Below are positions 1 through 7,592 of a stretch of 7,592 nt of DNA, one piece after another. The stretch covers positions 1-7,592 of the forward strand of contig DAOVER010000091.1 in assembly GCA_030668875.1 (NCBI GenBank), in the 5' to 3' direction. The stretch's first letter is position 1; each line of letters starts with the position of its first letter. The position numbers were made by a program, and so were the translations under genes. The notes below the pieces were generated by a model. It made no database searches and was not told where the DNA came from. It saw only the letters and a list, made by a program, of their open reading frames with translations. The stretch comes from Candidatus Heimdallarchaeota archaeon. GTDB taxonomy: Archaea > Asgardarchaeota > Heimdallarchaeia > Heimdallarchaeales > Heimdallarchaeaceae.

Positions 1-513
1 CGAGACTACTGTCCGAGAAGGGAGAGAGATAATAATATGCACTTTGCGGAAAAGTTTGGAAGTCTTCTTCAGTTGTCCTTTTGCCCACTTAAGGTAGCGC
101 CAGAGGTTACCTGTAGTGATTTTAAACCCCGAACTGTCTACCGCACACTCCGCGTCTTCCCCTTTTACAGCAGTATTGTAGCCCATAGTCCTAACCCAAC
201 TCTCTAACGATCCTACACTTATATCTTGCCATACTCTGTGAAAAGTGCTTTTTGAAGGTATAACCCTAAGGTACCCTTCTCTTCTCAGAAATTCACACAA
301 GGACAGCTTTAGAGGCAGTGTTCTCCATGGTACTCCTTCTATCCTCCCAATCACACAGAGTAAGACTATTACCCACCTTTCACCTACTCTTGGTGCTCCT
401 CCCTTCCTCCGGTCTACTGTTCCTTTCTCTGGGAATTTCCTTCTAACCAAATCTTTATTTATTTCAATAAACTGCTTAACTACTTGAGGGTCGAATTTTT
501 GTAGTATTAGCAT
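1..513 (-). CDS. IS5-like (DDE_Tnp_1-type) transposase, N-terminal 171 aa, runs off the window start
   Basis: Manual translation from ATG at 513: MLILQKFDPQVVKQFIEINKDLVRRKFPEKG...IPSKSTFHRVW...ECAVDSSGFKITTGNLWRYLKW...LFRKVHIIISLPSRTVVS, with no stop. PSxSTxHR precedes 'AVDSSGF' (first catalytic Asp, codon 136-138) and 'RKVH', matching the DSTG...KLH pattern of IS5-family transposases. Absent from the ORF track because it is open at the edge. Confidence 0.85.
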   Translation of the reverse strand, partial: MLILQKFDPQVVKQFIEINKDLVRRKFPEKGTVDRRKGGAPRVGERWVIVLLCVIGRIEGVPWRTLPLKLSLCEFLRREGYLRVIPSKSTFHRVWQDISVGSLESWVRTMGYNTAVKGEDAECAVDSSGFKITTGNLWRYLKWAKGQLKKTSKLFRKVHIIISLPSRTVVS

Positions 514-640
514 ATTTCAAGATTTGACCCTCATTACTTAGACTCTTCGGTCTTTGCTTTTTTCCCCCTTTTCTCCGCTAAAACGCTCTTTTTCCCTTAG
601 AGAAGCTCTAGTCTAGGCAGACTAGTTTTGGGACATGCTT
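1..640 (-). mobile_element. Left portion of an IS5-like insertion sequence
   Basis: Transposase ORF plus a ~125 bp non-coding end. GC is about 43-48% in sampled lines versus about 32% just after 660. Candidate terminal sequence on the minus strand is AAGCATGTCCCAAAACTAG (640->622). The partner end and target duplication are outside the window, so the boundary is approximate. Confidence 0.7.
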
Positions 641-4064: not shown

Positions 4065-4493
4065 TCATTCTTTCATTTTTCTTCGAATGATACTCATTAG
4101 TTCTTTCTCTAATGTTCCAAAATCTGATAGTTTAGATTTGATAATGTCATAAGCTAGTTCTTCATCCAATCTTCCATAACGATGAACCAAAATATTTCTA
4201 AATCCTCTCATCCCTTTTATTTTTTCTACCATTTCTAAATTCAATATTTCTCGTTTCTGTAATTGCTCTAATACATCTATTGTTCCATTTGGTATTCCTA
4301 GTTTCAAATCCGCATTAATCATTGCAACTACATCAATTATTAATTCTACACTGTACTCATATCTCTTATATATACCATCCTTGACCAATCCAAGTTTCAT
4401 AAAATCCTCAAGGTTGTCAGTTAGATTCTCCTGAATTAATTGAACATTTTCTTTTATTCGATCAAATTTTGCTATATAGAGATCAATCCTCAA
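4065..4493 (-). CDS. hepT: HEPN (DUF86) RNase toxin of a type VII toxin-antitoxin system
   Basis: RNILVHRY matches the HEPN RX4H catalytic motif with the trailing HXY Tyr; 142 aa; TTG start overlaps the upstream MNT stop by 11 nt. Confidence 0.9.
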   Translation of the reverse strand: MRIDLYIAKFDRIKENVQLIQENLTDNLEDFMKLGLVKDGIYKRYEYSVELIIDVVAMINADLKLGIPNGTIDVLEQLQKREILNLEMVEKIKGMRGFRNILVHRYGRLDEELAYDIIKSKLSDFGTLEKELMSIIRRKMKE

Positions 4494-4878
4494 TCATCAC
4501 ACCTTCTATGTATTGAATTCTGTATTTCTCAAAATCTTCATACTCACGAATTATATTATAAGCAATGTCATAAAGTTGTCTAGTTTCGTACACAACCCTT
4601 CCCGCTAGAACTTCTTTTTGTACTGCTAATGGTAGTAAATTCAGTGCTTGAAAGTCGAATACATCATGAAATTCTCCTGAATACTCTATTCTTTTGGAAT
4701 ATATTTCTGATTTTTCTAAGAATTGCTCAAAAGCTAATGCTATATCAACATCTTGAAAATTATCCTCATTAAGGAACGAACCATATATGATAACACCTAA
4801 AACCTTCTCATCACTTTCTGCTTTGCTTTTTATCCTTAAAATAATTTCTTCAATTTGTGATTTTTCCAGTTCAAGCAC
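4483..4878 (-). CDS. mntA: Minimal nucleotidyltransferase (MNT) antitoxin
   Basis: GVIIYGSFLNEDNFQDVDIA matches the GSX10DXD motif; 131 aa; directly upstream of and overlapping the HEPN gene. Confidence 0.9.
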   Translation of the reverse strand: MLELEKSQIEEIILRIKSKAESDEKVLGVIIYGSFLNEDNFQDVDIALAFEQFLEKSEIYSKRIEYSGEFHDVFDFQALNLLPLAVQKEVLAGRVVYETRQLYDIAYNIIREYEDFEKYRIQYIEGVMIED

Positions 4879-4945: not shown

Positions 4946-7339
4946 TCAGCATTGATTTTTGGCTAATCCTTTTCTTACCTCTTCTATTGCCTCTTCTGGT
5001 TGGTTTATCATAATGACAAATTCACTTTTTGATGTCTGATAGGGTTCAGTTTCCATCATTGACAATAAGATATTTATCAACAGAACTTGACCATCAAATA
5101 TTGTACTAGAACCAAAAAATCCTAGTGCAGACATAAAGGAAAGAGAAACTTCATCTTTTTCGACCCTTACCCATACCTCCTCCATATTTGCTTGATTTAT
5201 GAATGGTTTTTGAACTCTGTTTCTAATCCAATTCTTCATTCCTCCAGGTACTCGAATCACATTGTCACTTGTTTCACCTTTGAGCGCAATATCAGCAATC
5301 ATGGCAACTATCGTATTAACCTTTCTGGGTGTTTCATTCACATTTTCAATTTTAATTCGAATTATGTTTGAATCTGGGAGAGTTAAATATGAAATAGAGT
5401 ATTTTTGCCCTTTCAATCTTTCAGATTTTTCATTGATCCATGTAGTTTTAACTCCTACCCAATCTCCTTCTGATACTTCTTCTGTTTCAGTGTTCTCTAG
5501 TTCAGCAAAAGGATTATCCTCTGAAGTATGGAACATTGCCGGTTGGATTCCACCCAAATAGCTTTCCATGAAAAATTTTGGACCAACTTTAGGAAAACTA
5601 TCTAGAAGGAAAGAATTACCTTCAGAATCTTCAAGTTGAATTAGATCTCCACCTATTTTTTTTGGAACCTTAAATCTCAGATTTCCATTTTCAACCATCA
5701 ATACTTCCTGTTCCTCTGTCTTTTCTTCTTGGATTCTAATTTCTGAACCTCCCTTCAACATAACCGCCATATCAAAATCCATTTCAAATTCCCCGCTAAA
5801 ATGTAATCTAACTATATCACTTGATTTTAAAGTATCGTCAGGTATTGTGAGTTCAATTTCAATTGGAGTTTTACTATTTGGTACAAGCTCAGGCATTTCT
5901 ATTTGCTGTTGTTTACCCTCTGGTGTAACAAAAAAGCCATTCCATTTATCAGGCAAGATAAGAGATAATTTACCTGGAAGCGGATAAGGAGTTACTGATA
6001 ACATTTCTATGGTTTTTTGTGTTATTGTCCCTTTTGTTAGGATGTTGTTATCTTTTAGAGTAGCAGTTATTGGAGCAGTAGTTTGAACACCATATAATGA
6101 TTCTTCAAATGACATTTCTTTTTGCCCAATTAATTGATTCCACCTAGTTCTCACCTCTCTCAAAGAACTGTATGAATGAGCATACCAGAAATGAACTACT
6201 GAAACTTTTTCTCCTAGCTTCAATGATGTTTGTTTACTTTCTAGATCAGATAGGAATCCTTGATTTATCTTTATCTTCTCAATATTTTCAGGATTCCATA
6301 TAAGAGCTGAAATATTAACCTCTCCCATAAGTTCTCCAGCAGTCCAAGACTCATTCCAATCTTCTGGTTTATCCGAAACAAGATTTTGAGTCATAACAGG
6401 AAATGTAGGATCACATTCAATGTATTTGTTGAATATAGGGGTGTACACTTTTGCAAAATTCCCAATCGGATTAACATTGAGTCCTCCACCTCTTGTTGTA
6501 TTCACTCTTCCTCCCGTGGTAATTGATCCTTGATGTTCAATGTTTTCCAATTCTATCCAATGTTCTACTTCTTTAACTCCTGGTACAACACGTATATTTT
6601 TGATAATTCTTAATCCTTTTACTTGAATGCTATTTCCTTTAAGAATTAGAGTCAATTCATTTCCATCTTTCTTAACTCCGTAATCAAATTTCAGTGTTCT
6701 ATCCAAATCAAAACCATATGGAGGACCAATTTCAAAAGAGGATCTGATTTTAGTATCTTCTACATACCTTCTTGAAAAGAATATATTTGCTCTCTCTAAT
6801 TGTATTCTTATTGCCCAATAATCTGTAATCAAAGTAATCTTATCTTCATCTGGTCCTTGGATAACTTCTGCCATACCAGATATATTTGCAACCAAAGGTA
6901 AGTTAAATTTAGGCAGTGAAAATTCATTTTCTTTTATTTTTACAATTGGTGTTGCATGTAAAGTGAAAATAGATTGCTTTGTATCCTTTGGAATTGCTAA
7001 AGGAATTTCTATACCAGTTATTTCGCCTGGTTCAATAGAGAAATCTATTTCTTCTTCTTTCACTTTAATACCATCTACATGAATGAGAATCTTACCTGAA
7101 AGATGTTCGTTTGTATAATTCTTCAGATCGAGATACACTTTCTTCTCTATACCTAATGGTGTATTGATATATTCTGTCGAGCTCAGTAATTCAATAGCTG
7201 GATGGATTCTACCACCAGTTGTTAATTTAATCTCATATGACTTAAATGAGAAAATCGCTTCAATTACTTCAGAAGATCTTTGAGAAGATTTGTGTTTTCT
7301 AGATGTGCTATCTATAATGAAACTACTACTAACTGTAAC
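4946..7339 (-). pseudogene. C-terminal ~800 aa of a large beta-rich protein (Ig-like and galactose-mutarotase-like supersandwich segments), 5'-interrupted by an insertion
   Basis: Track ORF 4946-7138 continues in frame for 73 codons to TAA at 7358-7360 with no ATG/GTG/TTG. The extension reads ...VTVSSSFIIDSTSRKHKSSQRSSEVIEAIFSFKSYEIKLTTGGRIHPAIELLSSTEYINTPLGIEKKVYLDLK. VLMVENGNLRFKVPKKIGGDLIQL resembles the start of mutarotase-like domains. Confidence 0.65.
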
Positions 7340-7592
7340 GCACGTTATGAAACTTGGTTAAACTTGCCAGAGGCGGTTTAACCGTCGTTTAAGTGGGTCC
7401 CCTCACGTGCGTTGAGGGGAAGAATCATGAGGTTCATGATTGGGGAAGGAAGGAAGGGAGTGCGCATTTACTCCGCCAACATTCCTGCCATTGCGCTTCG
7501 TGCTGTATGGTTCAAGCTTTATTAACTGAGGGACAAGTGTTCAAACACTTGCGAACCATAAATATGGCGAGTTTTCGCCAAGCACTACCCAT
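7337..7592. ncRNA. Highly structured non-coding segment, probable end of a mobile element (omega-RNA/bridge-RNA/intron-like); runs off the window
   Basis: GC 104/212 (~49%) over 7381-7592 versus 37/120 (~31%) over 7201-7320. Perfect stems: 7356-7363/7376-7383, 7398-7404/7414-7420, 7423-7430/7434-7441, 7457-7461/7470-7474, 7506-7513/7553-7560, 7534-7540/7545-7551, 7565-7570/7575-7580, 7500-7504/7581-7585. No convincing ORF. Confidence 0.6.

Follow-up and report, generated by a model that had tools for sequence, protein, structure and literature searches.

What stands at the point where a long open reading frame breaks off near one end of a contig of a Heimdall-group Asgard archaeon, and why does a hairpin close by carry a loop complementary to the break? 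The window analyzed here (7,592 nt) is the entire contig DAOVER010000091.1 (C65) of a 99-contig, 3.23-Mb genome of Candidatus Heimdallarchaeota archaeon (GCA_030668875.1). A preliminary description, made from the sequence of this window, had reported the hairpin and the complementary junction between an element and its host, and had offered an omega-type guide RNA, a bridge RNA, or an IStron with group I splicing as possible explanations. The evidence compiled below makes it probable, with good confidence, that the minus strand of 7338–7592 corresponds to the 3' two-thirds of the scaffold of a TnpB-type guide RNA (omega RNA, also called reRNA). This scaffold is located on a gene-less IS607 derivative that is inserted in a protein-coding gene, and it would act in trans with TnpB.

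The pairing that raised the question is real and under selection. It involves a stem, TCCCCTC (7398–7404)/GAGGGGA (7414–7420), a loop, ACGTGCGTT (7405–7413), and the exact reverse complement of this loop, AACGCACGT (7337–7345). All of these components are present as first described, and a second stem is predicted at 7356–7383, where it had been placed. The 9-mer is confined to these two places in the window; among 200 dinucleotide-preserving shuffles, the mean number of matches was 0.01 and none gave two. Conservation was examined in an alignment of 64 distinct copies from 23 genomes. Standard pairs occupy 97.3% of the cells over 7 bp (7339–7345 with 7405–7411), such that scaffold nucleotides adjoining the guide pair with an upstream apical loop, as in the pseudoknot of an omega RNA. 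The stem that presents this loop (7398–7420) is nearly invariant, being paired in 97% of the cells. For the remainder of the 9-mer, the pair 7412–7338 is not conserved (A-U in 45 and U.U in 15 of the 64 copies). The pair 7413–7337 uses a base of the flank and is coincidental; among the 25 right ends counted in this genome (along with 24 left ends), A occurs there in about half. The real pairing therefore spans 7 bp, and the proposal that the whole 9-nt loop pairs holds for 7339–7345/7405–7411 and fails for the non-conserved 7338 and the flank base 7337.

Covariation provides evidence for this pseudoknot. Five of its seven pairs have changed on both sides (C-G to U-A, G-C to A-U, C-G to U-A, A-U to U-A, and G-C to A-U), and because these double changes affect five different positions, at least five separate events are required. 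Almost all of the compensatory changes are found in copies linked to tnpB. The observed values were reached by none of 500 shuffles, and slid registers show neither covariation nor double changes. A different partner for the 3' end, suggested by RNAalifold (GCGC, columns 175–178 of alignment A2), was rejected; it forms 4 bp, has no double changes, and is absent from the tnpB-linked copies.

The link to tnpB comes from the last 86 nt of the element (7338–7423), which are common to longer elements at 91–100% identity. This module is located directly 3' of the tnpB stop codon in full-length IS607 copies (about 40 loci in more than 20 genomes), and was found in 20 of the 23 genomes of the genus as well as in both genomes of the sister genus. 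Since tnpB runs toward the module and its stop codon adjoins it, the module represents the right end of an IS607-family element, and a guide RNA, if made, would come from the minus strand of the window. A location at the right end, on the tnpB strand and directly after the tnpB 3' end, is that of an omega RNA; the copy in the window has no tnpB of its own but has the same module (97–100% identity).

Both tnpB and a serine recombinase gene, which the preliminary description had listed among the genes to look for, were found in full-length sister copies. The 2,725-bp element on contig C48 encodes an IS607-type serine-recombinase TnpA (NF033518, 3.1e-48; Pfam Resolvase and MerR), which has an N-terminal MerR-type helix-turn-helix, and a 638-aa TnpB-like protein. 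In the latter, similarity to known TnpB/Cas12f is limited to the C-terminal TNB and RuvC-III part (Pfam PF07282, 2.5e-5, below the cut-off; PDB 8hr5, 5.7e-7 with a profile of 11 homologues). Residues D436, E535, and H620 are invariant in the 11 TnpB homologues, and a His thus occupies the position of the third RuvC Asp. Other TnpB branches also have a His here, which is considered compatible with activity (PMC10691335). The tnpB genes on C48 and C37 are open over their full length; the one at C87:373–2286 (L013) is interrupted by a stop (between residues 147 and 148) and is probably a pseudogene. In addition, many tnpB copies in sister genomes (L129–L133; G007, G023, G008, and G016) have a promoter-like TTTAAATA box and the right-end module, without tnpA or a recognizable left end. 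A comparison was made to see whether right ends in ...GCAT go with left ends starting with AT, such that the loop nucleotide would track the recombination core; in the tnpB-only copies retrieved for it, no left end could be recognized except for one that starts with GT.

These findings bear directly on the suggestion of a bridge RNA of the IS110/IS1111 type, in which the loop would pair with donor/target junction DNA for a DEDD recombinase. In the copy of the window, the loop is indeed complementary to the element/host junction. However, the full-length copies encode a serine recombinase together with a TnpB-like protein, and no DEDD recombinase is present in any of them. Furthermore, the loop is constant, whereas the right flanks differ among all 25 copies of this genome and among the 76 copies compared overall; covariation links the loop to the end of the element, with a different flank in every copy, the behavior that the preliminary description had regarded as diagnostic of an internal pseudoknot. 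The loop does not track the target, and its pairing partner is inside the element, the sole flank base being the coincidental one. A bridge RNA consequently has next to no chance of being the correct explanation.

The substitutions also identify the strand. In minus orientation, all helices taken together have 98 cells with G.U and 22 with A.C (10 and 6, respectively, in the pseudoknot; 82 and 11 in stem 7356–7383), and the single-sided changes are mostly G.U. This excess of G.U over A.C indicates that the RNA is read from the minus strand. Adjacency to tnpB, the G.U asymmetry, and covariation thus agree with the minus-strand, omega-like pseudoknot involving the last nucleotides of the element that had been suggested. 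A structured RNA of the plus strand, such as an antisense small RNA or a terminator-like structure, has a slightly better folding energy in its favor (−34 versus −27 kcal/mol; z −3.4 versus −3.0), and the C99 and C83 copies have single changes that produce G.U on the plus strand. Nevertheless, the wobbles of the 64 copies favor the minus strand, and the module has the sense direction of tnpB right after its stop codon. Decaying repeat DNA without any RNA function is opposed by the compensatory changes, which argue against neutral decay. Plus-strand RNA and functionless decay are together regarded as very unlikely.

The insertion itself can be rebuilt to the nucleotide. The missing N-terminal part of the host gene was located by tblastn at C85:29386–29913, where it adjoins the left end of an element; this host half ends in ...GGTGAAACC and is followed by GTTAGCAAC.... 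Contig C85 holds element positions 1–138 (C85:29914–30051) and the window holds positions 144–398, so the two contigs represent the two sides of one complete insertion. On the window side, the repeat starts at 7338 (ACGCACGTTATG...), which sets the breakpoint between element and host at 7337/7338. The junction had been predicted at the break in the host frame, and the minus-strand frame is indeed open to 7336/7337; its stop falls within the element at 7358–7360. When the flanks are joined with one GT, the sequence reads GGT GAA ACC GTT ACA GTT (G E T V T V) in frame, and the rebuilt gene is equal in length to three uninterrupted orthologues (G E T K T V). A match in frame and length to the orthologues requires that one GT come from the host, which identifies GT as the crossover dinucleotide; its presence at both junctions is what a serine recombinase would produce. 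The presence of this dinucleotide at both junctions and the lack of a long target duplication are features of an IS607 insertion. The host/element junction was confirmed by one contig from public runs (record 2 of X1, 6987–7364, 0 differences), and no empty allele was found in the contigs of four public runs aligned to 6900–7592. None of the public runs listed is registered as RNA.

A second site, reassembled from the C29 left flank and the C83 right flank, also fits by length. Judged from orthologues in the four genomes compared, the sequence to the left of the copy at C29:51578–51972 continues to the right of the copy at C83:33626–34021. This reflects either a mis-join of the contigs across the repeat or recombination between the copies. 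Here, GT is found at the left end and AT at the right. For the C95 copy, a search for an uninterrupted orthologous site found none.

The rebuilt empty site in the window reads ACC-GT-TACAGTT. In this genome, ACC precedes GT at 23 of the 24 left flanks, and GT starts all 24 left ends. The recurrence of ACC points to ACCGT as a target motif or one resembling a target-adjacent motif (TAM), and, judged from the flanks, ACCGT is likely the TAM of the partner TnpB. The right end, by contrast, reads TGCGT ahead of the guide. A conserved left-flank motif combined with a rebuilt empty site, as well as a right-end flank that is different in each copy, are patterns of omega RNA systems, and the right flank would be transcribed as the guide. 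The guide had been placed at 7336→7317; its derivation from the flank stands, but the assignment was off by one base, and the start should be 7337 (to about 7318). The segment so defined (Table 1) matches the rebuilt empty site.

Another possibility is that the inverted 7–9-mer acts as DNA, either as binding half-sites for TnpA or as a cruciform at the right end. A DNA-level signal does exist there, as the left end has a 20-nt subterminal repeat that is found inverted at 7350–7369 (75% complementary; inverted repeat I1), and this repeat is a putative TnpA binding site. Moreover, the ends of IS607 elements hold short inverted motifs that are needed for TnpA (bioRxiv 10.1101/2023.11.20.567912), and the pairing takes in the G of the crossover dinucleotide, i.e., the pseudoknot includes the G of the GT core. 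However, neither ACGTGCG nor CGCACGT is found at the left end, and five different positions have changed on both sides with complementarity kept. The intermediates are mostly G.U in one orientation, a bias that a protein site on duplex DNA would not give. An explanation of the inverted 7–9-mer at the DNA level is thus considered improbable.

The element in the window belongs to a family of about 20 copies of an ORF-less element of approximately 398 nt in this genome. Complete copies are 395–398 nt in length, contain no ORF, and form two subfamilies that are about 80% identical to each other. The repeat containing 7338–7592 has more than 30 matches in the genome, and many of these are located at contig ends, which indicates that this repeat is what breaks the assembly. 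Each element consists of a left end, a copy of the tnpA–tnpB intergenic segment (77.5% identity over 40 nt), a domain of about 165 nt, and the shared 86-nt right end. The internal 165 nt share only a CCUUCC tract and the intergenic promoter segment with tnpB in blastn comparisons. This tract is common to the gene-less element and the tnpB 3' end, and the hairpin at 7457–7474 adjoins it on its 3' side in RNA orientation. The internal domain includes 12 pairs with compensatory changes (18 copies from nine genomes), with 14 G.U and 3 A.C on the minus strand. A nearly invariant TTTATATA is found approximately 25 nt upstream of the structured part. From this arrangement of sequence motifs, the gene-less element looks like a self-contained transcription unit for the scaffold and a flank-derived guide. 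The coordinates of all features are provided in Table 1.

Table 1. Features of the window that belong to the gene-less IS607 derivative or to the gene it interrupts, with coordinates of the whole stretch.
Feature	Coordinates	Strand	Remarks
Interrupted host gene, distal part	4946..7337	minus	Frame open to 7336/7337; orthologues uninterrupted in three sister genomes
Predicted guide segment UACAGUUAGUAGUAGUUUCA	7318..7337	minus	Flank just 3' of the element end; 20-nt length assumed by analogy
Right-end-proximal 255 nt (element positions 144–398) of the 398-nt ORF-less IS607 derivative	7338..7592	minus	Rest, including TATA-like box and left end, on C85:29914–30051
Crossover dinucleotide GT, right-end copy	7338..7339	minus (AC on plus)	Left-end copy at C85:29914–29915
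Pseudoknot 3' strand, ACGUGCG in RNA orientation	7339..7345	minus	Pairs with 7405–7411
Second scaffold stem-loop: outer 4-bp helix 7350–7353/7387–7390 and inner stem 7356–7383	7350..7390	minus	Eight pairs with double changes; 7350–7369 is the right arm of the inverted repeat
Stem-loop presenting the pseudoknot loop; 7405–7411 is the pseudoknot 5' strand	7398..7420	minus	Likened to the 'nexus' of other omega RNAs
Small hairpin AAUCAUGA/UCAUGAUU	7424..7441	minus	Gene-less family only; inverted repeat I4
Hairpin GGAGU/ACUCC	7457..7474	minus	Stem read from the sequence by eye; CCUUCC tract adjoins
Three-way junction, closing helix GUGCU/AGCAC and two internal hairpins	7500..7585	minus	12 compensatory pairs

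Derivatives with other compositions were also observed in this genome. At C15:30715–31483 (L014), a 769-bp variant has only tnpA, without tnpB, between the same left end and the 86-nt right-end module, and its TnpA is 85% identical to that of C48. A mini-element of about 85 nt at C88:71838–71922 consists of approximately 44 nt of the right end joined to approximately 51 nt of the left end. The copy at C91:28222–28528 (L018/L002) has kept only the right-end-proximal 305 nt or so and has lost the left end; it runs directly into a coding sequence resembling a solute-binding protein, and a signal-peptide-like start is found on its other side.

Could an element with these properties be a self-splicing or self-processing RNA, such as a group I or group II intron without an ORF or an element resembling an IStron, with the loop–end pairing as a tertiary contact or splice-site pairing? 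Splicing would then join ...GAAACCGT directly to TACAGTT in the RNA. A length of about 400 nt, dense structure, covariation, and frequent placement inside coding genes would all suit an intron, and the combination of a group I intron with IS607/TnpB is known from IStrons (bioRxiv 10.1101/2023.11.20.567912). However, approximately two-thirds of the copies abut long open frames in either orientation, and antisense insertions (about 7–8) are at least as frequent as sense insertions (about 3–4), such that there is no sense bias. In the complete copies, no group I, group II, or ribozyme family of Rfam matches at E ≤ 5. A reading of the sequence also found no boundaries that combine a U ahead of the 5' junction with a G at the end, and the same 86-nt end follows tnpB in full-length elements. 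The IStron or group I option is therefore discarded as highly improbable. Readings of the element as a group II intron or an RNase P-like RNA were likewise rejected, on the grounds of Rfam results, insertion orientation, and linkage to tnpB.

Database comparisons placed the RNA in no known family. Rfam gave no match at E ≤ 1 in the window and none at E ≤ 5 in four complete copies, and ARAGORN identified no tRNA or tmRNA. The element thus falls outside the curated guide RNA families (e.g., HEARO and RAGATH-18 in Rfam). In terms of sequence similarity, the scaffold represents a new family, which has no bearing on how it works.

What the sequences establish directly is the covarying pairing, which strand encodes the RNA, the linkage with tnpB and tnpA, where exactly the element was inserted, the duplicated GT, and the ACC|GT motif. 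For the guide RNA proposed here, we infer transcription, TnpB binding, cleavage, and homing from these sequence features, and the course of events would be as follows. The RNA would be made from a TATA-type promoter inside the element that is a copy of the tnpB promoter, starting near GUAGUGCU, approximately 25 nt after TTTATATA. The loop of 7398–7420 would pair with the last seven scaffold nucleotides (7339–7345) and close the scaffold just before the guide, which would be transcribed from the adjoining host DNA from 7337 downwards. The 638-aa TnpB of full-length copies such as that on C48 would bind this RNA in trans and may be directed to the empty allele, where ACC-GT precedes the guide match, countering excision by TnpA. 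Retention of the element after excision would thereby be favored, as has been shown for IS605 and IS607 systems (bioRxiv 10.1101/2023.03.14.532601; 10.1101/2023.11.20.567912).

Several points weigh against this explanation. Production of the RNA and its binding by TnpB are deduced from DNA sequence. Neither the window nor the complete copies match an Rfam family, known omega-type families included. Because the copy in the window lacks tnpB, the protein would have to be supplied in trans. Beyond the 86-nt module, only CCUUCC matches the tnpB 3' region, and this TnpB would therefore not necessarily recognize the RNA. The nuclease activity of the protein is uncertain, given that a His replaces the third RuvC Asp. 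In addition, a few copies have C.A mismatches in the pseudoknot, and given the putative TnpA site at the right end, some of the conservation could be due to selection at the DNA level.

Comparisons with characterized systems place the element among known relatives. TnpB and Fanzor2 guide RNAs have been described as sharing a conserved pseudoknot in which guide-flanking nucleotides pair with an apical loop (PMC10711439), and this feature has been called universal for IS605/IS607 omega RNAs and Cas12 guides (bioRxiv 10.1101/2023.11.20.567912). In ISXfa1, an IS607 element of Xylella fastidiosa (Yoon et al., NAR 2023), disrupting and restoring mutations demonstrated that the pseudoknot is essential (PMC10711439). 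Similar to the family described here, ISXfa1 has a serine-recombinase TnpA and a TnpB, a guide RNA at the right end, and the pseudoknot, and its scaffold incorporates a nucleotide that the recombination core keeps fixed; in the present case, it is the G of the GT core that pairs. However, the IS607 elements studied, ISXfa1 among them, use a GG core (PMC10711439; bioRxiv 10.1101/2023.11.20.567912), whereas the core here is GT in the context ACC|GT. The pseudoknot has 7 bp compared with about five in ISXfa1, the TnpB is a 638-aa His-type protein, the host is an Asgard archaeon, the copy in the window lacks tnpB, and the two scaffolds have no sequence or Rfam similarity.

The CboIStron of Clostridium botulinum (Zedaveinyte et al., bioRxiv 10.1101/2023.11.20.567912) provides another parallel. 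Its 'nexus' stem-loop pairs with the 3' end of the scaffold, and its TAM consists of the left-end flank and the core dinucleotide, as does the likely TAM here. Excision by TnpA regenerates a donor joint that is matched by the guide, a situation likened to the present case. Non-matching left and right cores are also reported in that study; here, one such case was found (C29/C83, with GT on the left and AT on the right). The differences are that the present element has no group I intron and no sense bias, and that the target motif is not the TGGG of CboIStron.

The IS200/IS605 element ISDra2 (Sasnauskas et al. and Nakagawa et al., Nature 2023; cited in PMC10711439) has a scaffold closed by a pseudoknot beside the guide, as here, and, different from here, a Y1 transposase and a TnpB of about 400 aa with a canonical D-E-D triad. 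ISFba1 (Ren et al., Cell Res 2024, PMC11061315) likewise has a pseudoknot beside the guide, and disruption of its PK1 abolishes cleavage. Its TnpB is a D-E-D protein of about 400 aa and its RNA is derived from RAGATH-18, whereas RAGATH-18 does not match the RNA described here. The closest parallel to the absence of genes is offered by the PATE-like IS200/IS605 elements (Meers et al., bioRxiv 10.1101/2023.03.14.532601; Nature 2023), which are minimal and non-autonomous and have kept both ends and the omega RNA, as in the present family. The omega RNA of gene-less IS605 elements is used in trans by TnpB encoded elsewhere (bioRxiv 10.1101/2023.03.14.532601). In comparison, the elements described here have an IS607 parent with a serine recombinase, an archaeal host, a copy of the tnpB promoter, and a structured domain of their own of about 165 nt.

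Two other regions of the window have features of their own. Window positions 1–640 are a repeat of a different family, which is 90% identical to C2:12286–12926 and 99% identical to the end of C83, and has a G+C content of about 44% compared with about 32% nearby. The minus-strand open frame at 1–513 has no Pfam match. Just downstream of the disrupted host gene, the minus strand at 4065–4878 encodes a HepT-like RNase (PF01934, 2.3e-22) that overlaps a Pol-beta-type nucleotidyltransferase (PF18765, 3.3e-10); by these domain matches, the pair is assigned to the HepT/MNT-type toxin–antitoxin modules.

Pseudoknots of this kind and gene-less elements with omega RNA are already well described, and no new mechanism is revealed. 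What is distinct is the lineage, the GT core with its ACC context, the 7-bp pseudoknot that includes the core G, the miniature form that keeps a promoter, and the lack of an Rfam match. The repeat explains the assembly breaks at about 20 places and the many truncated-looking genes of this genome. Within the IS607 family, the findings indicate that IS607, like IS605, yields gene-less derivatives that keep the guide RNA, here with a promoter as well. A bolder suggestion, which we put forward tentatively and consider possible but doubtful, is that the elements of about 398 nt are self-promoted, 'guide-only' IS607 satellites, with some 20 copies each expressing a different guide for one trans-encoded, enlarged His-type TnpB. 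If so, they would form a natural, dispersed multi-guide system, in which the coupling of the pseudoknot to the crossover nucleotide would tie the evolution of the RNA scaffold to that of the recombination site. The TnpB lineage concerned, enlarged (638 aa), with a His at RuvC-III and carried on IS607 elements of Asgard archaea, has been little studied, and for its guide RNA the locus provides an exact anchor that is backed by covariation: the pseudoknot, the RNA strand, where the scaffold ends, where the guide starts (7337), and the likely TAM ACCGT. These are the pieces needed to reconstitute the system.

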